DNA of 64,000 nt, from UHGV virus genome UHGV-0112899, one strand, 5' to 3'. The DNA comes from a virus. Within the stretch, counting starts at the first letter, position 1, and every line of letters begins with the position of its first letter. The notes beneath the pieces are model-generated. The model made no database searches. It worked only from the letters and a program-made list of their open reading frames with translations, and was not told the origin of the DNA. Both the position numbers and the translations under genes were made by a program. Positions 15,991 to 51,204 of the stretch are shown here, in pieces.

Positions 15991-16900
15991 TATTGGTGCT
16001 AAATTTATTTCTTATAGCGACAATCATCGTCCTGCGGCGGAAGCCACTATCAGCCATATGCGACGTATTCGCTCGGAGGACGAATTTGATCGCCCAGTCT
16101 TTAAGTGGGTCGGCGGCAAATTTTCTGCACTGCCCATTATCTTCGAACACCTGCCCCACGGAAAACGGTTGATAGAACCTTTCGTTGGAGGTGGCGCTGT
16201 TTTCACTAATGCCGGATTTAAAAGCAACCTGCTGAACGATATCAATAATGACCTGATTAACTTCTATCAGACATTGCAGCGTGAAGGGCATTCTCTTATC
16301 ACACTGGCATATCGTTTTTTTCAGGATTACAACTCTGCTGATGCATTTTTGAATGTTCGCAATGCATTCAACAATGGTGCTTATGATTCCCTTCACCATG
16401 CAGCGGCGTTCCTGTATCTCAATCGTCATTGTTTTAATGGCGTCACTCGCTATAACCGTAAAGGAGAGTTCAACGTCGGATATGGAAAGCAGAAATCACC
16501 CCACTTCCCTCTCGCGGAAATGGAGGCGTTCCTGGCTGACGATATTTCAAAGTATTCGGAATTTGTGTCCGGCGATTTTGCTGGTGTAATTGAGGCTGCC
16601 GGGAATGATGATGTGATTTTCTGCGATCCCCCCTATGAACCATTGCCCGACACTACCGGATTTACAAATTACTCAGGGCATAGCTTTAGGTTTGAAGATC
16701 AACAACGGCTGGTGTCACTGCTGGTGGATGCCCACAGACGCGGAGCGAAAATTGTGATAACAAACAGTGGTGCGCCTAACATTCGCGAACTTTACGTTGG
16801 CAATGGCTTCAAGGTGTATCCTATGCCATCCCGTCGCTCTGTATCCTGTAAAGCATCAACGCGAATGATAGCTAACGACATTATAGCCACACTTAATTAA
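15983..16900 (+). CDS. dam: DNA adenine methyltransferase (Dam family)
   Basis: FKWVGGKFS, EPFVGGGAVF, FLYLNRHCFNGVTRYN, DPPY motifs; GTG start after AAGGAGGG. Confidence 0.85.
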   Translation: MADIGAKFISYSDNHRPAAEATISHMRRIRSEDEFDRPVFKWVGGKFSALPIIFEHLPHGKRLIEPFVGGGAVFTNAGFKSNLLNDINNDLINFYQTLQREGHSLITLAYRFFQDYNSADAFLNVRNAFNNGAYDSLHHAAAFLYLNRHCFNGVTRYNRKGEFNVGYGKQKSPHFPLAEMEAFLADDISKYSEFVSGDFAGVIEAAGNDDVIFCDPPYEPLPDTTGFTNYSGHSFRFEDQQRLVSLLVDAHRRGAKIVITNSGAPNIRELYVGNGFKVYPMPSRRSVSCKASTRMIANDIIATLN

Positions 16901-17035: not shown

Positions 17036-17323
17036 TCATTTTGTATCCTCAGACTCTGCAAGCATGAGGATAGCATGGCGGATCATATTCAATTTGCTGC
17101 GATTATGCTTTTTGCTTAACGCATCAAGTACCTGGTACTCGTATTCATTGAAGCCAACACGAATGGATTTAAAATCACGTGGGGCGTCCTTATCGAGCAC
17201 TTTGTTGTCTTCTGGTTGCTCACCCGGCACCAAATCAGCTTTGCTGGCAAAAGCCTCAATTCGGCGTTCAAGATCGAGGTCTTTTACTTCGGGGGCTTTT
17301 ACCGATTTACGAGGCTTAATCAC
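17036..17323 (-). CDS. ParG-like ribbon-helix-helix partition protein
   Basis: 95 aa; C-terminal RHH-like segment; GTG start after AAGGAG; coupled to the upstream ATPase. Confidence 0.55.
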   Translation of the reverse strand: MIKPRKSVKAPEVKDLDLERRIEAFASKADLVPGEQPEDNKVLDKDAPRDFKSIRVGFNEYEYQVLDALSKKHNRSKLNMIRHAILMLAESEDTK

Positions 17324-17957
17324 TTAATAACTCCTTAACCAACATCTGGATTTCACCTTTAGCTTTCCCGTTGTCCATCTCAACAACGCCCTTCCCTTCA
17401 GCCATACAATCGCGGTAAACCTTGCGATCGCGAATGATGGTTTTCAGCAACTTCAGTTGCGGATATTCAGCCAGGTACTCTTTGGCCTCATTGGCTTCAT
17501 TCACAACCGGATTGGATGGGGCCATTGTTAAAACTGCGCACGCCTTAATGCTAGGATTAGGCATCAGATCCAAAGCCTCTTCAAAGACTTCAACAAAATG
17601 CGCCAGCGTGTCTAAATCTGGCTGAGATGGCCTGAATGGAACAAGCAAAACATCCGCCGCAGTAATACCGGTGCGCATCTCTTTGCTATCACGACCAGCG
17701 GTATCAACAACCACAAATTCATAACGCTTGTCCAGATCAAGAAGTGTTTCACGAATATTCCCAAACTTCTGGACGCAATGAATTACTGGAGAAACCTCTG
17801 CCGCATTACGGTCCGATGCCCAACGGGCAGATGTTCCTTGCTTATCTGCATCAAGTAGAACTACGTCCTTATTTGCGCGGGCAAGCTCCGCACAAATGTT
17901 TACGCTGGTGGTTGATTTGCCACAGCCACCTTTTTGGCTGGCTACCAATATAATCAT
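17316..17957 (-). CDS. parA: ParA/ParF-type partition ATPase
   Basis: deviant Walker A ASQKGGCGKSTT; 213 aa (small type Ib ParA). Confidence 0.8.
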   Translation of the reverse strand: MIILVASQKGGCGKSTTSVNICAELARANKDVVLLDADKQGTSARWASDRNAAEVSPVIHCVQKFGNIRETLLDLDKRYEFVVVDTAGRDSKEMRTGITAADVLLVPFRPSQPDLDTLAHFVEVFEEALDLMPNPSIKACAVLTMAPSNPVVNEANEAKEYLAEYPQLKLLKTIIRDRKVYRDCMAEGKGVVEMDNGKAKGEIQMLVKELLSD

Positions 17958-18099
17958 ATCCGTCCCTCGGTGTTATTTTGGTATCAAAATGGCTCCAAAC
18001 AGAAGCCTTATTGATGCGGTTTTGGCTCTATAGTGGAGTCACTATGCTTTGCAAAAGTATAACACTAAACACTCGAAATTTGCCCTCTGTTGCATCCTG

Positions 18100-18176
18100 T
18101 TTAACACGAAATCAGCCTCAAAGTGGAACCAGACACAAAACAGCACCACAACAACACCGTTTTGGTACTAAAAGAG
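18100..18176. repeat. partition-site-like repeat upstream of the ParF-like gene
   Basis: caacaacaccgttttggtactaaaagag matches the motif at 16957-16983. Confidence 0.4.
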
Positions 18177-18200
18177 CACCAAATTAGAACCATAACAGTA

Positions 18201-18224
18201 TAAAAAAGGCTGCAAATTGCAGCC
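18201..18224 (-). terminator. rho-independent terminator (minus strand)
   Basis: stem ggctgca/tgcagcc with 3-nt loop; followed by T-run on the minus strand. Confidence 0.6.
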
Positions 18225-18242
18225 TTTGAAGATGTAGATTTG

Positions 18243-18608
18243 TTAATCAGGGAGTGAGTTTGCCAAATTCTGTGCAGAGCGGCTTTTCGAAACGCCAGGT
18301 TTTTTAACATCCGCTGAGGCTGAGGGGTTTCCTTCAGGGTTTTCCCGAACTTCAGGCGAAATTTCAAGAAATGAAACCAGCATTTTTCTGATCACTTCAG
18401 GGCTATTATCACCGGATAAAAGCGATGCCAACATGGGAGGTAATCTGCTATCAACCTCGCCAAGAGCGATACCTGCAAGCATCGCTGTGCGCGCCATATC
18501 ATTGCGATCTCTTAATGGATGGCCCTCAAGTTTTGCATCAGCATATTGCTCACTGGCGTTAAGACCAGGACGAAGATAAAACAATACTTTTCGACGTTCC
18601 TGAGACAT
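18243..18608 (-). CDS. parR: ParR/StbB-like partition adaptor
   Basis: 121-aa ORF immediately downstream of parM; assignment by position and size. Confidence 0.5.
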   Translation of the reverse strand: MSQERRKVLFYLRPGLNASEQYADAKLEGHPLRDRNDMARTAMLAGIALGEVDSRLPPMLASLLSGDNSPEVIRKMLVSFLEISPEVRENPEGNPSASADVKKPGVSKSRSAQNLANSLPD

Positions 18609-18618
18609 GGCAACCTCA

Positions 18619-19578
18619 TCAACCGATAGATTTTAGACCATAGACAAGAGCAAGTTGTGGATCATCAGCAACGAAAAACCTATCGTCACGAATGTTTACC
18701 TGCTCACGGATAGCATCAGCAACAAGCGGCGCGCCGCCACCAATGACCATAACATGCGTGTATCCTTTGAAATCACTGATCACATCCAGTACGCGTGTAC
18801 GGAGTCGTTCTATGCTTGACGAAATGGCTTTCTTAACATCATCAATAGCAGACGGATCGTTAATATTGTCGGTCAAATAATCCTCATCATCACGATTAAT
18901 GATTAATTGATCGACATTATAATTAGAGGTTTCGGTATTCGCTTTTGCAAGTGCCTGTCTGACCTCTTTAGTTACCAGCGAAACGCCGAGATTAGAATCG
19001 CCAAATACGCGAGAAACGGCGGTCATTTGCCCGGCGACCATCGACACATCCAGAGTAGTCCCACCAAGATCAACAATAAGCACAGAATGCGCTGGCACAA
19101 GGCTGTCGCACAGACCGATCCCTGCGGGTATTGACTCCGGGCGCACAGTCACTTTTTTGATAGTAAAAACCTGACCTTTGTTAAGGGTGACTGGTCGCAT
19201 CAGGCTGGCCTTTTTCCGCTCAATATTTTTCATGTTGTATTGTGCGTCGTCGTCATAAAACTCTGCCAGTGGCAACGTGACAACTATTTCCACTTCTTGA
19301 GGCTCAATGCCACTTGTAAGCAGGGCATGATGAACAGCAAGCACATTAAGCGGGCTGTATTGCCATTCCACATTATTCGTCGGCAGCACATCCGGCGAAA
19401 TCAAGTCATATGAATATTTTTCGTCATCAATGATGTAGTTAAACGGCTTTCCTGCGCCAAATGTGGCGGACCATCCACGTTTAAAACTGTTCGGACAGAT
19501 ATGGGTTCGAGTTTCCCCGTCTTGTTCCCACAGCATTTTGATATTGGTAGAACCATCGTCGATAAAAATGCGCATCAT
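18619..19578 (-). CDS. parM: ParM/StbA actin-like partition ATPase
   Basis: N-terminal MRIFIDDGSTNIKM and VDLGGTTLDV, VIGGGAPL actin-fold motifs; 320 aa from ATG 19578. Confidence 0.75.
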   Translation of the reverse strand: MMRIFIDDGSTNIKMLWEQDGETRTHICPNSFKRGWSATFGAGKPFNYIIDDEKYSYDLISPDVLPTNNVEWQYSPLNVLAVHHALLTSGIEPQEVEIVVTLPLAEFYDDDAQYNMKNIERKKASLMRPVTLNKGQVFTIKKVTVRPESIPAGIGLCDSLVPAHSVLIVDLGGTTLDVSMVAGQMTAVSRVFGDSNLGVSLVTKEVRQALAKANTETSNYNVDQLIINRDDEDYLTDNINDPSAIDDVKKAISSSIERLRTRVLDVISDFKGYTHVMVIGGGAPLVADAIREQVNIRDDRFFVADDPQLALVYGLKSIG

Positions 19579-19589
19579 ATTGCTCCACT

Positions 19590-19770
19590 TCTGAGACACA
19601 TTTGAGAAAGAATTGAATTTTATATGAGAAAACAAAATAAGACCAGAAGTTAGATAGCGTAAAAAGCATCAAACTAGAGACGTAAAAGAGACACAAAAGA
19701 GACTTAGATGATACATGATGTACCCATGATACCCTTTTGAGACAAATCAGAGACAAATATGAGAAGTAAG
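19590..19770. repeat. parC-like centromere: two clusters of ~11-bp GAGAC(A/G) iterons
   Basis: agagacgtaaa/agagacacaaa/agagacttaga and ttgagacaaatc/agagacaaata/tgagaagtaag flanking a central segment, upstream of parM. Confidence 0.5.
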
Positions 19771-28991: not shown

Positions 28992-29699
28992 GTGAGTATT
29001 TTTAGTGCTACAACGCAAACGCTAGCCAGTGCGGTATCGTTTAGCGCGAAATCGTTCACCAGCAACCTTATCAGCGACATTCTGGATAGAGCGGTGTCTG
29101 GCAGTGGCGTTAGTGGGAGCTACGGCAATGACATCGCTTACGGAAAGAACGTAGTTGCTACGGCTATGCGTATCCGCTATGCCCAGGGCTGGCAGTGGAC
29201 GGTAGACGTAGACGGATTAAGCGGCTTTGATATGTTCGTTAAGGACATCACTTACAGTAGCGGGAATATTGAAACAGAAAGCAAAATCATTGGTAGCGTC
29301 GAGTTCAATAAGCCAACGCACGTAACCGCCGGGCCGGTAACAATGACGGTCAGAGACACAGAAGACGGCAAAATAATGAATTGGTTCAAAGAGCGCCGCG
29401 CTCGTGTAACCAATAGCGATGGTACGCTAAACCTGCCGCCAGATTATCTCATGAATATCAGGCTATACCGCGTTACACAGGAAGGCGGGAAAGAGCTGGA
29501 AGAGGAAATGCGTGTATTTCCGACTCAGATAGGAGAGATCAGCCGCTCACGTGATCAGGTGTCCGAATTCTTGTCCTATCCGATCACGTTCCAGCGATAC
29601 ACATCTGCCGGTTCCGGCCTGTCCGCATTAGTCAATGGAGCTGCTGGTTTAGCAACAAGCGCACTTAAAAGCGCCGCCAGCAACGTGATCAAGTTTTGA
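28992..29699 (+). CDS. hypothetical structural protein
   Basis: GTG start 4 nt after GGAGGG; an alternative start at 28962 is possible. Confidence 0.4.
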   Translation: MSIFSATTQTLASAVSFSAKSFTSNLISDILDRAVSGSGVSGSYGNDIAYGKNVVATAMRIRYAQGWQWTVDVDGLSGFDMFVKDITYSSGNIETESKIIGSVEFNKPTHVTAGPVTMTVRDTEDGKIMNWFKERRARVTNSDGTLNLPPDYLMNIRLYRVTQEGGKELEEEMRVFPTQIGEISRSRDQVSEFLSYPITFQRYTSAGSGLSALVNGAAGLATSALKSAASNVIKF

Positions 29700-29741
29700 A
29701 ATGCAGTATTAAAGTGCGAGAAGGTGGGGAAGGGGCAAACT

Positions 29742-30035
29742 TGAGGGCAATATCTACACCTGCTGTTTACGTCAATGATGGCATTTTTTACACATCACAA
29801 CAAAATCAACGCGTTACAACCATAAAACATTCAACAGTAGTGCGATAAAAATAGCTATAGCATACGATGCCATCTGAGGGTGATTTTTACACATTCCTTA
29901 TTAATCAATAAATTACAAATAATGTTAGCCGTTAAAGATCCAACCAACTAACTAATGATGTAAGAATTGCCCTCAATCTCCCATCTTTAAGGGCAAATCC
30001 TACACCTACAGAGAGGTGTAGAAATTGCCCTTAAG
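29742..30035. repeat. control-type iterons downstream of rep (incA-like), mixed orientation
   Basis: tgagggcaatatctacacct, tgagggtgatttttacaca, inverted gatgtaagaattgccctca, and inverted pair ttaagggcaaatcctacacct/aggtgtagaaattgcccttaa. Confidence 0.6.
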
Positions 30036-30786
30036 ACTGCTGATAGGTGAATTTTATTTTTGTAACTCTGCCACCTTCTGTAACCTCTGAGAAAACTATT
30101 TTCATTTTTGTGTTTTTTTCGATTTCAGCTACAGCTTTTGCCAGAAAGCTTCTCTTAAATTCGGCGTACCGTTGATAGCTTTTGGGAAGACCATAACGCT
30201 CCCGCATCCATTCAACGCCAAGTATAGCGAAGCCGCTCCCATCATCCTTTCTATACTGGCATAAGGACTCATAAAGCCGCATAGAATAAGGGTTTGTCAG
30301 GCGAGACACTTCAGTAAAATTCAGCCTCGTGAACCTCTTATCAAGCAGAGTAAAAAACGGCATGAGATATGGATTCAGATGAATAATGTAAGTCCCCCGG
30401 CGTGGTGAGTAAGCCTCCTTAATCATCCAGGGATAAGACTCATAACTGTCTTCTGATTCGGTTGATTCATCAGGGTTATATATCGTGACTTTCTTCTCAC
30501 TAAGTCCGGAGATAGCTTTACGAATATCCTTGCTGGCTTCAGCAGAGGGCAAATTATACATCTCTGCATATTCGTTGACCGTCAACTCACAGGCACCTGA
30601 ACCAAGAACGCCATCCTTAGAAGCATAGCGAAGTCTTCCCACCACAATAAACAACAGTCGCTTTTGGTCGCGTGTCAGGTGATAAGCCGCCTCTGTGATC
30701 TCATTGGCCTGCGCCAAGCTACGGCTAATTGGTGTCGCTGATTCAATCAGACTGACGGCTTTTGCCGTTAATTCCGCTCTGTTCAT
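30031..30786 (-). CDS. repE: replication initiator, Rep_3 family (RepE-like)
   Basis: strong similarity to F-plasmid RepE (TEAAY..RDQKR, NPYSMRLYESLCQYRK.DGSG, PKSYQR); 251 aa from ATG 30786. Confidence 0.85.
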   Translation of the reverse strand: MNRAELTAKAVSLIESATPISRSLAQANEITEAAYHLTRDQKRLLFIVVGRLRYASKDGVLGSGACELTVNEYAEMYNLPSAEASKDIRKAISGLSEKKVTIYNPDESTESEDSYESYPWMIKEAYSPRRGTYIIHLNPYLMPFFTLLDKRFTRLNFTEVSRLTNPYSMRLYESLCQYRKDDGSGFAILGVEWMRERYGLPKSYQRYAEFKRSFLAKAVAEIEKNTKMKIVFSEVTEGGRVTKIKFTYQQS

Positions 30787-30810
30787 AACCCTGTGTGATC
30801 CTTCAAATGG

Positions 30811-30930
30811 TGAGGGCAATTTTTACATCACTTTGAGGGCAATTACTACACCTTTTGAGGGCAAATCTTACACCTGCTGAGGGCAAATCTTACACCTCAA
30901 TAGCTTAATTGAGGGCAAATCTTACACCTT
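30811..30930. repeat. origin iterons: five direct repeats of TGAGGGCAAATCTTACACCT
   Basis: copies start at 30811, 30834, 30856, 30879, 30911 with mostly 22-23 bp spacing. Confidence 0.8.
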
Positions 30931-30959
30931 GGTCCTCTACAAGCCCCGCCACCCCTGGC

Positions 30960-31069
30960 CTCCGCGATGCCTAAAAAGGATCTAAAAAGGATTAAAAAGA
31001 GAAAAAGGTTTATAAAAATACTCTGTGGATATGTGAATTGCGTCACTTAAGGTGTAAAAATCACCCTCA
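30960..31069. other. origin-associated AT-rich region, DnaA-box-like site and inverted iteron
   Basis: A-rich 30975-31020; TGTGGATAT (31024-31032, 8/9 to DnaA box); inverted iteron aggtgtaaaaatcaccctca at 31050-31069. Confidence 0.5.
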
Positions 31070-31172
31070 ATAGTTGCTGTTCGATCGACAAAGATCCTTA
31101 TTCAATACTCCCACAAATCACACACTCCCTATCCTCTGAAAAACTAACTGAACCTAGCTTTCGGAGGAATCC

Positions 31173-31997
31173 TTGAACATTCCCAAATTCCCATTGCCTT
31201 CACAGCCTGAAATAGAAATTCAGTTTCATGCACCTACTGTGAAAGATGCCCTGAAATATTCAGACATCAATCCGGCAGAAGACGAGGCAACCACAACAGA
31301 ATACCTCAATGCTATGCAAGACGGCGAAATTAACGACAGCTCAAACTGGACAGTTCAGGATCGCAGAACCGCGCTTTGGTGGATCTTTGTTAATTCCAGG
31401 CCTGATGCCGTCATGACTTACTCATACGAGTGTGGTCACTGTGGAAACGTTCATCACGCAGATATTAACCTTTCAGACCTTGCCGAAACGGTAGAAATCC
31501 TGACTGTCCCGCCGTTTATTAAAACTATGGTCCCTATAAACGGAGTACCAACCGAGTGGACGCTTAAACCACTAACAGGGAAAGGAGCTGAATTGCTTGA
31601 GCGTATGCGCGCCACTTTGCCTGATATGAAAACTCCAGAGTACAGTGCTGAGGTTGCTCGTCTCCGCATAGCTGAGTTGGCCTTGTGTACATCTCTGAAC
31701 GACGATCCAGAAGACTTCACACAAGCTGCAAACAGACGATTCGATATCATTGAAAACATGGCTCTGGAAACCGAGTTTACCCCTCTGGTAGCTCGCATTC
31801 AGCTCATGCAGAAAGACCTTCGCCACGGCTTAAAAATGGCTATTGAACGAGGCACAAGCCGCCTGATCCTACCGCCACAACGCTGCAAAAACGCTAAGGA
31901 GGGTGCAGACGTGACTACCACGCTGTACGCCCCATTTCTCAATAGAGAATTTATCCCATCAATTAGATCTGAATGGATGGCTAACCATTATCAATAA
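31173..31997 (+). CDS. hypothetical protein
   Basis: 274-aa ORF; TTG start 7 nt after GGAGG. Confidence 0.45.
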   Translation: MNIPKFPLPSQPEIEIQFHAPTVKDALKYSDINPAEDEATTTEYLNAMQDGEINDSSNWTVQDRRTALWWIFVNSRPDAVMTYSYECGHCGNVHHADINLSDLAETVEILTVPPFIKTMVPINGVPTEWTLKPLTGKGAELLERMRATLPDMKTPEYSAEVARLRIAELALCTSLNDDPEDFTQAANRRFDIIENMALETEFTPLVARIQLMQKDLRHGLKMAIERGTSRLILPPQRCKNAKEGADVTTTLYAPFLNREFIPSIRSEWMANHYQ

Positions 31998-35917: not shown

Positions 35918-36292
35918 ATGCTTTATGAGATTGATGCCCGCCTTCAGACAAACGAGAGCGGGGTGGTAATCGCTGAAGGCGACACAAACGCCTGGATAGC
36001 CCGACTCGATGAATGGCTACGGACACCAAATGGCAGCGTTTACGGATTGCCGTCATGGGGGAATCCGATGGAGGAGTTCAAACACGAATCCTTCGGTTCT
36101 GATACGTCACACATTGTTGAAGTGGCGATTGAAGCGCGAATGATGACGAAGCTACAGCAGGACTTACCAGGGCTTGGACTCCAGGCGATCCGCTGCGCGA
36201 CTGTCTCTGAAGACCAGTTACTAATTAGCTTCCAGGCAAAAGGAGGCACCGTGAATGTTGTTATGCAGAAAGATAGCGGAGATACAGCGTGA
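35918..36292 (+). CDS. baseplate wedge protein (gp25/GpW-like)
   Basis: 124 aa directly after the tape-measure-like gene; GGAGGA RBS. Confidence 0.4.
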   Translation: MLYEIDARLQTNESGVVIAEGDTNAWIARLDEWLRTPNGSVYGLPSWGNPMEEFKHESFGSDTSHIVEVAIEARMMTKLQQDLPGLGLQAIRCATVSEDQLLISFQAKGGTVNVVMQKDSGDTA

Positions 36293-38571: not shown

Positions 38572-38687
38572 CAAACCAGGCCCCGCCAACCTGGGTGGGG
38601 CCATTTCTCAAAACAAAAGACCACTGGAAATCACAAACTGAACATACTGCCCTTCGATTTATTGCTTGTTAAAGGGGCTATGTTCGT

Positions 38688-46990: not shown

Positions 46991-47083
46991 TCAAAGGGGC
47001 TGAAATGCCCCTTTCACTTTCCTGTAAGTCCATAAATCACACACTTTTTACACTTCCTGCTTTCTATGTAAGGGGAGTGTATT

Positions 47084-50000
47084 TTGAACAAGTCAGTTAC
47101 TTCCGCGCTATCCGAAGCAGCAGACATTAACAGTGTTATTGCGCTGGTTTCTTCATTAGAGAGGCGAGAAACACGCCAGGGGCGCAGTAGTTACGTAGTC
47201 ACCAGTAAAGGGGCAGAGGTAAAGACGGCTTTTAAGGTCGTTGATGCCAGCAGTCTGATCATTTCGAACAACCTTGACGGTACGATTAATCCGGCCTTCC
47301 CGGAAGAACTCCAACCACGAGATCGTACCCGGCTATCCAGCAAACTCCAGGTTAACCGTATTGCCTCCAATTTACGCCCGGCACAATTAACGGATTCCGG
47401 TATGAGCAGCCACGGAGCGCCGATAGTTGGTCCGGACAACGTTGTTGAATCCGGCAACGGAAGGAGTATGGGTATCTGGCGTGCCTATGAGCAAGGACAG
47501 GCGGATGAGTATCGCCAGTACCTGATCGACCATGCGAAAGAGTTTGGTCTGAATCCTGACGAAATTTCGCAAATGTCTATGCCCGTACTGGTGCGAGAAA
47601 GACTCACAGATGTAGACCGCGCTCAATTTGCCCGCGATTCAAACATTAGCGATCTGCAAGAGATGGCAGCAAGTGAAAAAGCGTATGCGGATGCGCAATT
47701 TCTCACTGAGAGCGTCATGGCGCTATTTAATCCTTCAGATGATGGAAATCTGCTGGCGCGGTCCAATGATGCGTTTATTCGTGCGTTTTTGCGCGAAATT
47801 GGCGATACAGCGACGGCAGGCTTGCTTACTGCCGATGGGCGTCCCACGAAACAGCTTATCGATCGCATCCAGAATGCAATTTTTGCCAAAGCGTACAAGG
47901 ATGAAAGGCTTGTTCGGTTGGTGGCGGAAGAGCCAGATCCGGAAATGCGTAACATCCTTACCGCATTAAATACGGCAGCCAGCGATTTTGCGCAAATGCA
48001 GTCGCTTTCAGGTGATGTTCACCATGACACGGTAACCGGACTGGTAGACGGTATAGAGCAATTGAATGGTCTGGATAAACAGGCTATTGCCGCGCTACAG
48101 GAAGCAATTAACCTTGTTCGTGAAGCAAAAGATAACGGTCAGGCAGTAGAAGAGGTGATCGCACAGCGTGGATTGTTTGGAGATAGCACTCCGGAAGCAG
48201 AAGCGCTTGCTCTGTTTATTGTTGCCAACAACCGAAGCGCTAAGCGAATGGGGGCAGCTTTCAAGAAACTGGCGCAAAAAATTAACGATGAACTTATTCA
48301 CCAGCAACAAGCGTTAGGCGATATGTTCGGCGGCGGAGATGTCGATCTGCGTAGCATTTTATCTGCCGTTTCTGATGAAATTGAGGCTGAGTATGGCGAA
48401 GGTAAAGGGCTTAATTTCGCCATGTTCGAATCGGTTTCGGGAGATGTCGAACCATACATTTCAAAGCTAATTGCTGATGCGACCAGCGTGGAGGACTTGA
48501 TCCGAATCGTGAAGGCGTCAGAAAAAATTAAGGAGTCCGCAAAAAAAATAAAGCGCAATGTATTTTTGGAACTTGGTTTTTATATTCGCAATGTCACCGT
48601 TAATGAGATTAAGGCGTGGGCTAAACGTTATGGATACAGCAACGCTGTGTTAACAACGATGTTATTGTCTTATCAACGCAGCAATTTTTATGCTAACGCA
48701 CTGCGTGACGCGATTGAAAAAGGAGATGAAGCTCCTTCACTCGCAGATGAAAGAAATATTGATTGTGACATTGAAACGTTTTGCAATATGTCAGAAGAAG
48801 GCGTGCCCGCTGAACAATTTATACGTGTTTTACATAATGCAGCAAAACATATTCCTGATGACTTTAGCATTGATGAATTGCGCAATGGTTGTCTTGTTTG
48901 GTTAGGTAACTATTTAAAATCTCCAGCGTCTATTGCAGAGAAAACAGCTTTAAGATTTAGAAAGGAAATGAATAAAGCTGGAAGCGCAGAAGAGATGGTG
49001 CGCATAATCCAAAATACTTTGAAGTTATTCAAAAAGAGCTTGCATAATATCAACGATATTATGGCGGCTGGTAGGAAAATAACAGCCAGCGTCGGAGTTA
49101 GCTCCGAACTAACGGCAGAGGAGATCGCTGATGCGTATATTGAGACACTTGTCAGGCTTAAGGAGATAGTGGAATTAGCAGAGCATTCCTCATATTACGG
49201 AATCAAGGAGCGCGTTGACTTTACTATAGAACAAATCAATAAAGTTAGGTCAAATAAGGAAAAACTCACTGACTACCTTGCTGAGGTTTTGCACCAGAAT
49301 GATCATGGGATTGGATATGATCTGAAAAAAATGCTTGTTTTTAATCTGGACATACCGGAAGACTTGCAAGCAGAATTATATGAAATAGCTTCATTAACAC
49401 GTGGACAAAAAGCCTATCCTAATGCGCTTGAAAATGTAGTACATAAAAAAGTCAGAGCCGCATTTGACATGATTCTTGAATCGTCAAATGTGTCACATGA
49501 CCAGTCTAAGGAATGGAGTCGTGGGATTGCTATTTCTGATGAAGCAGAGCAGTTAAGTGGTCACGATAATGAAACTTTCTCCCGTAAAGCATACAGTATT
49601 CGCGAGACAATTGAAAAAGCCTATATTATTTCAGGAGGGACTTTATCTACATTAAAAAATATTAACCACAAGAACAATGTTCGTGCTTTTGCAAGTCGAA
49701 ATGGGAATATAACAATTGATGCTAATAGTGATCATGAGCGTGTATTATGGCATGAAATAGGTCACCATATAGAACATTCAAATCCCCATCTATTGGAGAG
49801 GGCCAAAGCCTTCATTAAATCAAAAACTAACGGTAAAGTTTCTTATCATAATATTGGTAGCCGTGGCAGTGCTGAGTATTTGGTGCGAACCGACCTAAGT
49901 CATGGATATATGTCTAAAATTTATATGGAAAATACGGTAAGTTCTGTCAGCGGCAGATTTATATCAAAGCCACCTGCATTAAGCAATTGCAGGGCGACTG

Positions 50001-51023: not shown

Positions 51024-51204
51024 GATTTCTCCGCAGCAAAGTGGTCAACTTTTTCAATCTTAATACGCACAATGTGCATATGCAAGTTTTATTCTTCACT
51101 TTGTTACGAGAGGGGCCAGCCAATATTTCTAGTTGAAAAGATCCATCATCAAAAATCACATACTGATTATGCTGCCGCAAACTGAAAACATTTCGCGGTG
51201 ACTC

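Follow-up and report, generated by a model that had tools for sequence, protein, structure and literature searches.

Anatomy of the replicon and its initiator gene

We analyzed a plasmid-type replicon in a 64,000-nucleotide stretch of the virus genome UHGV-0112899 (the window), where positions 29,742 to 31,069 hold a replication initiator gene, rep, and the repeated sequences (iterons) that surround it. The gene lies on the minus strand (30786..30031, from an ATG start to a TAA stop at 30033..30031), so that 'upstream' of rep means higher coordinates, and it encodes a RepE-like Rep_3 initiator of 251 amino acids with two winged-helix domains (WH1 and WH2). Read in the direction of rep, the module runs from the DnaA box(es) through an AT-rich element, a GC-rich spacer and the origin iterons to rep and a set of downstream iterons. 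An initial annotation of the window had described a complete plasmid-type replication module on a phage genome, and the mini-F-like order of the parts, together with flanking genes like those of phage D6, supports this description. The replicon is real, was correctly interpreted and is already known; our additions are minor and consist of a fine map, a missing operator, a conserved intragenic site and an apparent position between late units.

A Pfam search of the Rep protein recovered both halves of the two-winged-helix initiator expected of Rep_3 or RepE-type iteron theta replicons, each far over the curated cut-off (Rep3_N, PF01051, 2.6e-29, residues 36-187; Rep3_C, PF21205, 3e-15, residues 202-259). 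The annotation had also placed Rep close to RepE of plasmid F, and when we ran the BLASTP comparison with RepE translated from plasmid F, the two proteins aligned over 228 residues with 50% identity and 68% positives (E 2e-86). The closest solved structures in the PDB are likewise F RepE chains (1rep, 2z9o and 7uxy, E ~1e-73), and by sequence F RepE is the nearest characterized relative of Rep. In our reading of the alignment, the RepE residues N22, R47, L142, R145, F146, Q171 and Y172, which contact single-stranded DNA of the unwinding element (PMC10602881), are identical in Rep, and most of the single-stranded DNA contacts of RepE thus appear to be conserved. The ATG at 30786 is supported as the start codon because the relatives of Rep all begin MNR... 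or MD.... The product of D6 gene 42 is 98.4% identical to Rep, and the divergence between the two genes (synonymous divergence, dS, 0.47; ratio of nonsynonymous to synonymous divergence, dN/dS, 0.018) points to strong purifying selection on rep.

To map the iterons, we scanned the whole window with the pattern TGAGGGCAANNNNTACAC, allowing up to two or three mismatches, and compared the counts with those in 100 shuffles. With up to two mismatches, 13 matches fall within the 1.33 kb of 29742-31069 and a single one in the remaining 62.7 kb; with up to three, there are 26 matches against 5.2 +/- 2.3 in the shuffles, none of which reached 26 (maximum 11). The 13 sites comprise five phased origin iterons, one inverted site past the DnaA boxes, one intragenic site and six downstream sites. 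Outside the replicon there are 13 weak iteron-like matches (12 with three mismatches and one, at 36038, with two; examples lie at 16814, 17473 and 18758), which exceed the ~5 expected for the whole window and include three in or near the partition genes; they are probably a compositional effect.

The origin iterons are direct repeats of ~20 bp that read TGAGGGCAA....ACACCT on the plus strand. They start at 30811, 30834, 30856, 30878 and 30910, with a spacing of 23, 22, 22 and 32 bp, and so provide the ~22-bp phasing beside rep that is typical of such origins. Iteron 1 (30910..30929) adjoins the GC-rich spacer and is followed by iterons 2 (30878..30897), 3 (30856..30875) and 4 (30834..30853). 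Iteron 5 (30811..30830) is the nearest to rep, ends the array 24 nt from the ATG, has a variant sequence (TGATGTAAAAATTGCCCTCA in the sense of rep) and contains an extended -10-like element, TGTAAAAAT.

On the other side of the origin array lies the GC-rich spacer (30930..30971, GC 0.60), which carries a short dyad, GCCAggggTGGC in the sense of rep (30948-30959), and, ahead of iteron 1, the conserved sequence AGAGGA. It is followed by a 48-bp AT-rich stretch (30972..31019, GC 0.23 in a 60-nt window), a putative DNA-unwinding element that contains, in the sense of rep, five T5 tracts at a spacing of 8-12 nt and one GATC. Next comes a DnaA box on the minus strand, ATATCCACA (31032..31024; TGTGGATAT on the plus strand), which matches the consensus at 8 of 9 positions. 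A degenerate box, CAATTCAC (31040..31033, minus strand), stands in tandem before it, and the pair reads cAATTCAC-ATATCCACA. The five iterons, the A/T-rich stretch and the DnaA-box-like site had all been named in the initial annotation and hold up at these coordinates. Absent from its description is the inverted iteron past the DnaA boxes (31050..31069, minus strand, two mismatches, -283 from the ATG), which faces the opposite way to the origin array.

The same is true of the intragenic iteron-like site at +234 (30544..30563, plus strand, two mismatches), which reads AGATGTATAATTTGCCCTCT in the sense of rep and encodes E-M-Y-N-L-P-S. Downstream of rep, the annotation was right about mixed orientation and about an inverted pair overlapping the rep stop; its count of four to five sites falls short of the six that we found. 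The proximal ones are at +753 (30014..30033, minus strand, its last three bases being the TAA of rep), at +790 (29988..30007, plus strand, one mismatch, the left arm of the inverted pair) and, inverted, at +811 (29956..29975, minus strand, one mismatch, conserved in D6-like elements). The distal ones, all on the plus strand, are TGAGGGTGATTTTTACACAT at +903 (29875..29894, two mismatches), the degenerate TGATGGCATTTTTTACACAT at ~+1002 (29776..29795, two mismatches) and TGAGGGCAATATCTACACCT at ~+1036 from the ATG (29742..29761, no mismatches). The two arms at the rep stop are 90% complementary across a 6-nt gap, and this head-to-head pair (29988-30033) folds at -35.2 kcal/mol (z -6.0) at the 3' end of the rep-sense RNA; because no U-tract follows, the hairpin is not a canonical terminator. 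The +790 arm is found only in D6-like elements. The sites at 29875-29894 and 31050-31069 are 95% complementary to each other.

Relation to the F replicon and conservation among relatives

For comparison with mini-F (RepFIA, IncFIA), we read ori2-repE-incC from plasmid F itself, having dropped the RepFIA replicon of pO157 as a comparator since an insertion sequence (IS) element abuts repE there. One script then mapped the sites in F, in five D6-like elements (the window and D6 included) and in three more distant relatives, with Rep identities of 78% (L006), 72% (L008) and 57% (L010).

The F initiator has the same length (251 amino acids) and belongs to the same fold family, and its origin shows the same order of tandem DnaA boxes, a T-rich element ending in CCTTTTTAG, a GC spacer with a dyad and iterons phased at ~22 bp. 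The DnaA box and AT-rich element stand in this order in F and in the three more distant relatives as well. Tandem boxes lie at the matching place in F (TTATCCACTTATCCAC), L006 and L010, and one box in D6 and L008. Both the position and the T-rich polarity of the AT-rich element are as in the oriS unwinding element of F, and relative to the iterons the T5 tracts occupy the strand that they occupy in F. When the unwinding element is single-stranded, RepE binds a run of five thymidines in it (PMC10602881), and by analogy the T5 tracts would fit such a contact. The spacer dyad stands at the same place in all relatives, followed by AGAGGA, and its sequence varies: GCCAggggTGGC in the window, GCCAgtagTGGC in D6 (L001), GCCAcggcTGGC in L006, CCTTGTGccaCACAAGG in L008, GCAGCCCTTGcaggaCAAGGGCTGC in L010 and GCCTtgtAGGC in F; the versions with a 4-bp dyad are individually not significant. 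Downstream, both clusters begin at the rep stop, with iterons at +758, +813 and +904 in F against +753, +811 and +903 in the D6-type replicon, whose six sites of mixed orientation form a cluster like incC of mini-F.

The two replicons also differ in several respects. F has four origin iterons and the D6-type replicon five; their iterons have the half-site ATTGCCCTCA in common, whereas the second half-site is TGTGACAA in F and GGTGTAAG in the D6-type replicon. In F, a promoter and inverted-repeat operator segment, GTGTGACAATCTAAAAACTTGTCACAC, precedes the ATG, where the D6-type array already ends 24 nt from the start codon. The inverted site past the DnaA boxes and the intragenic site are found in the D6-type replicon and have no F counterpart, and the sopABC partition locus that adjoins the F replicon has no equivalent next to the D6-type one. 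Under a strict definition of IncFIA (a RepE orthologue with F iterons, TGTGACAAATTGCCCTCAG), the replicon falls outside the group, with a Rep identity of 50% and one differing half-site: because the iteron half-site differs, it is not IncFIA, and MOB-suite accordingly types it as rep_cluster_1704 and not as IncFIA. Thus, the likeness to F that the initial annotation had proposed stands, without extending to IncFIA identity or to the F operator. Judged by these sequence comparisons, the module is a member of the mini-F replicon family by descent, but not of IncFIA.

The arrangement of sites is stable among relatives. In the five D6-like elements, the nine sites between -283 and +811 keep their positions without exception and the site at +903/904 is present in 5 of 5, so that only the two most distal ones vary. 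The site at about +1036 was found at this distance from the ATG in all five, and that at about +1002/+1003 was found by the script in three (the window, pPSS-10_3 and an E. marmotae plasmid); D6 has a more degenerate copy at ~+1003 that we recognized by eye (TGAAGGCATTCTTTACACAT, L001 5822). The distal ~350 bp downstream (29600-29950) could not be aligned to D6 by megablast and occurs as two alleles, the window type in ~6-17 records and the D6 type in ~75-98, and both alleles have iterons at ~+904 and ~+1037/1038. Relative to D6, the 300 nt that precede the ATG contain 32 substitutions; none of them affects the DnaA box or positions 2-20 of an iteron, and only two lie in the AT-rich element. 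The more distant L006, L008 and L010 keep five or six iterons at a phase of 22 bp (six in L010), each with a constant TTGCCCTCA half and a second half that differs by lineage; the variant iteron 5 is identical in L006, whose other iterons differ. The inverted site at 31050-31069 is invariant in the five D6-like elements, and L008 has three such sites there, F none. In L006 (4760-5290), we also observed that the downstream iterons lie within three ~179-bp tandem repeats, each with an oppositely oriented iteron pair.

No stretch of identical nucleotides that rep shares with the rep genes of the 72%- and 57%-identity relatives is longer than the 20 nt of the intragenic site, in comparisons in which synonymous sites are saturated and, elsewhere, only ~41% of the codons for identical residues match. 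This identity suggests selection on the DNA sequence itself, and the site is possibly an extra Rep-binding site. It is missing from the 78% relative L006 and from F.

The host element and its published relatives

We next consider the element that carries the replicon. A 1.6-kb query spanning it was compared with plasmids and phages at the nucleotide level (megablast): three E. coli plasmids of ~90 kb match at 100%, among them pMUB-MIN14-1 (NZ_CP069647.1), and Escherichia phage D6 matches at ~90% identity across 78% of the query length. The D6 annotation around rep lists a tail tube protein (the homologue of P1 tub), a "replication initiation protein" (gene 42), a PmgB-like and a Sit-like protein, and the order tub - rep - pmgB is common to the window, D6 and three other plasmids. 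Because of the D6 identity and the same flanking genes (tub and the PmgB and Sit homologues), we assign the host element, on sequence and synteny, to the D6-like, P1-related phage-plasmids, subgroup P1-g2 of an earlier classification (PMC7969092). In D6-like elements, the 1.47-kb replicon lies antisense between tub and pmgB, which are 14 bp apart in P1, in the LPsit late operon. The window encodes its partition proteins elsewhere, at 17316-19635 on the minus strand: a ParM (StbA_N/ParM domains, 2.4e-69), a Plasmid_stab_B (StbB-like) protein and a ParA/MipZ-like ATPase, all outside the module at a distance of ~10-13 kb. That replication and partition genes lie apart in the P1-g2 subgroup has already been published (PMC7969092).

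The replicon was found in 94 of 5,426 complete E. coli genomes, where all of its 101 places are on plasmids and none on a chromosome. D6-like phage-plasmids thus occur in ~1.7% of complete E. coli genomes, and also in Salmonella and Shigella. The plasmid records that carry the replicon are ~90 kb and non-mobilizable, and rep_cluster_1704 is the sole replicon type that MOB-suite assigned to the D6-like plasmids examined.

The organization of P1 oriR, in which repA lies between the origin (incC) iterons and the downstream (incA) iterons, follows the same logic as the D6-type replicon; the P1 initiator is described as flanked by an origin and a downstream control set of iterons (PMC10999674, citing Chattoraj and Schneider 1997). 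The two phage types are related; in P1, however, the replicon lies elsewhere in the genome and the partition genes adjoin it, which they do not in the D6 type. The initiators themselves do not match: a tblastn search of Rep against 50,697 phage records (E <= 1e-3) found D6 and neither P1 nor P7, although P1 records were present, so that homology to the IncY RepA of P1 was not detected. The remark "Similar to P1 repA?" in the D6 record likewise found no sequence similarity behind it. P1-group phages have therefore swapped in unrelated plasmid replicons, namely IncY, p0111 and this F-like one. We had expected PlasmidFinder to type the replicon as p0111; according to the literature, the p0111 type belongs to a P1-type rep, and the scheme does not include that of D6. 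The replicon of L006 sits in a P1-like contig at a different place, near proteins with a DdrB-ParB domain or resembling DarB (a 2,234-residue helicase) and HigB/HTH toxin-antitoxin genes, and that of L010 is on an ordinary Nissabacter plasmid; the cassette is therefore modular.

Existing annotations already name the gene as an initiator: D6 gene 42 is a "putative plasmid replication initiation" gene, RefSeq lists a "RepB family plasmid replication initiator protein", and its pYU39_89 counterpart appears in the literature as "repB associated with iteron sequences", a plasmid replication gene (PMC6799933). The D6-type replicon has been reported as missing from the common plasmid-typing scheme, and its rep gene has been used as a D6 marker in surveillance (bioRxiv 10.1101/2025.09.12.675607). 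This is a textbook iteron replicon that opens no new question by itself. Its precise map is nevertheless useful because D6-like plasmids occur in ~1.7% of complete E. coli genomes and the replicon is reportedly missing from the typing scheme, and the 13 sites and origin elements could serve annotation, typing, and incompatibility or curing tools.

Proposed mechanism and alternative explanations

From the sequence anatomy, homology, conservation and plasmid-only location described above, we infer how binding, melting, autoregulation and copy control would proceed. We propose that this is a low-copy theta-type plasmid replicon, a relative of mini-F ori2-repE-incC, that very probably keeps the D6-like phage in the cell as an extrachromosomal prophage. 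If Rep acts like its F homologue RepE, its monomers would bind the five phased iterons (30811-30929), host DnaA would bind the box(es) at 31024-31040, and the two proteins together would open the AT-rich element (30972-31019). A loop-back contact of Rep on the iterons may hold the strand with the T5 tracts, after which the host helicase and replisome would be loaded. Since the array leaves no space for a distinct promoter and operator, the promoter of rep most likely shares sequence with iterons 4 and 5. In P1, the origin iterons extend to the start of rep and the promoter lies within them, and occupancy of the iterons would repress rep here as it does in P1, rather than by way of a dimer operator as in F. 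Titration of Rep by the six downstream, the intragenic and the far-side inverted sites, and the pairing of these sites with origin iterons through looping or handcuffing, would limit copy number and define incompatibility. In F, whose replicon behavior has been described in some depth (PMC13028717, PMC10602881), incC lowers copy number, sets incompatibility and has been proposed to loop to the origin (PMC13028717). The six downstream sites correspond to incC and by analogy would play the same role, in which the intragenic and far-side sites may also take part.

It is important to point out that several observations weigh against a simple transfer of the F scheme, or against the proposal as a whole. 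Rep has a Glu at the position of RepE R118, and the DNA-binding triplet R205-R207 of RepE is K-R-S in Rep; because of these changes, dimerization and the details of DNA contact may differ from RepE. The inverted-repeat operator of F (TGTGACAA-N9-TTGTCACA) is absent before the ATG in the window, D6, L006, L008 and L010, in all of which the iterons reach within 24-34 nt of the ATG, and because the operator is absent, the dimer-based autoregulation of F is not simply transferable. Nor did a simple sigma-70 scan find a rep promoter, the extended -10 in iteron 5 being our own reading. The origin has a single good DnaA box (8 of 9 positions), and its downstream sites are of mixed orientation, whereas the visible incC sites of F all point in one direction. 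Finally, we found no experimental dissection of this replicon in a literature search that did not cover Gilcrease and Casjens 2018. As a separate candidate for an operator, we considered the inverted repeats formed by iteron 5 and the sequence downstream of it (CCCTCA-N5-TGAAGG and GTGAT-N28-ATCAC); they are not conserved in L006, L008 and L010, and we rejected them.

Could the module be a relic or a secondary replicon, with the prophage kept by another origin that we did not recognize, or by low-level activity of repL? The window holds 64 kb of an element of ~90 kb, and D6-like elements have a lytic replicon, repL, as well (PMC6799933; bioRxiv 10.1101/2025.09.12.675607). The signs of function nevertheless make this improbable: the dN/dS of rep is 0.018, substitutions avoid the iterons, 108 plasmid records carry an intact rep open reading frame at >=95% identity, and a single replicon type is assigned to these plasmids. 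In P1, moreover, repL is the lytic and not the prophage replicon. A defective natural deletion variant of 75 kb, which lacks the tail, baseplate and lysis genes, keeps repB and persists as a plasmid (PMC6799933).

The antisense position between tub and pmgB raises a second alternative, namely that Rep and its array mainly regulate or insulate late transcription, either by blocking or looping the DNA between the tub and pmgB units or through antisense read-through that switches off plasmid replication on induction, with replication being secondary. Several features of the locus are compatible with this. The genes that the module separates are 14 bp apart in P1, the 3' end of rep carries a strong hairpin made of the inverted iteron pair, and the terminators found in a scan are no more than expected by chance, with no convincing one after tub. 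Outside the replicon, 46 nt past the outermost iteron, the plus strand carries AAATCACACACT-N3-TATCCT (31115..31135), a sequence conserved in D6 that is a candidate late promoter of the D6 type for pmgB-sit and stands 38 nt before pmgB. The motif behind it, AAATCACA(C/A)ACT-N3-YAYMCT, recurs on the plus strand at 38628-38648, 47034-47054 and 51153-51173, and the four copies stand 30-40 nt upstream of plus-strand reading frames (pmgB, a tail-fibre R-like frame and those at 47084 and 51205). With up to three mismatches, it has 7 matches against 0.57 expected, a pattern that was itself derived from three of the matches. The motif may represent a D6-type late promoter, and if so, pmgB-sit would form a separate late unit and the replicon would lie between two units. 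A mainly transcriptional role is nonetheless speculative and quite unlikely: all canonical origin elements are present, and the relatives in other contexts (beside darB/ddrB-like genes or on the Nissabacter plasmid) keep the same anatomy, which is therefore independent of the tail-gene setting.

A further idea is that the antisense placement of an F-type replicon between two late tail-gene units may be functional. On induction, read-through from tub would cross the control iterons and rep and thereby shut off Rep and plasmid-mode replication at the lytic switch; in lysogeny, Rep at the 13 sites, including the intragenic one and the inverted one beside the DnaA boxes, would insulate the neighboring late promoter, and the conserved intragenic iteron would act as an extra, undescribed copy-control site. 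We consider this doubtful, if somewhat less so than either alternative above. That the repeats arose by chance, or are a recombination or packaging signal unrelated to Rep, is a general possibility to which the thirteen weak matches elsewhere in the window (12 with three mismatches, one with two) lend a little color, and it is exceedingly unlikely given 13 sites with up to two mismatches around a Rep_3 gene against one elsewhere, a half-repeat (TTGCCCTCA) common to the F RepE iteron and site positions that are kept across diverged relatives.

Two further searches concern signals around the array. Rfam returned two matches far under the gathering scores, one of them on the iteron palindrome, which we attribute to chance. 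For late promoters of the P1 type, we built a weight matrix from the six annotated P1 sites (AAGTGACTT-N4-TAnnnT), a box from which the D6-type motif is distinct and whose true sites score 16.9-22.8. A promoter of this type at the inverted iteron (31050-31069) was rejected, as the best score in 29600-31300 was 9.1 and that upstream of pmgB 7.0. The top matches to the P1 matrix in the window are on the minus strand at 51907-51889 and 8188-8170 (16.3 and 15.7), away from the main plus-strand morphogenesis genes.

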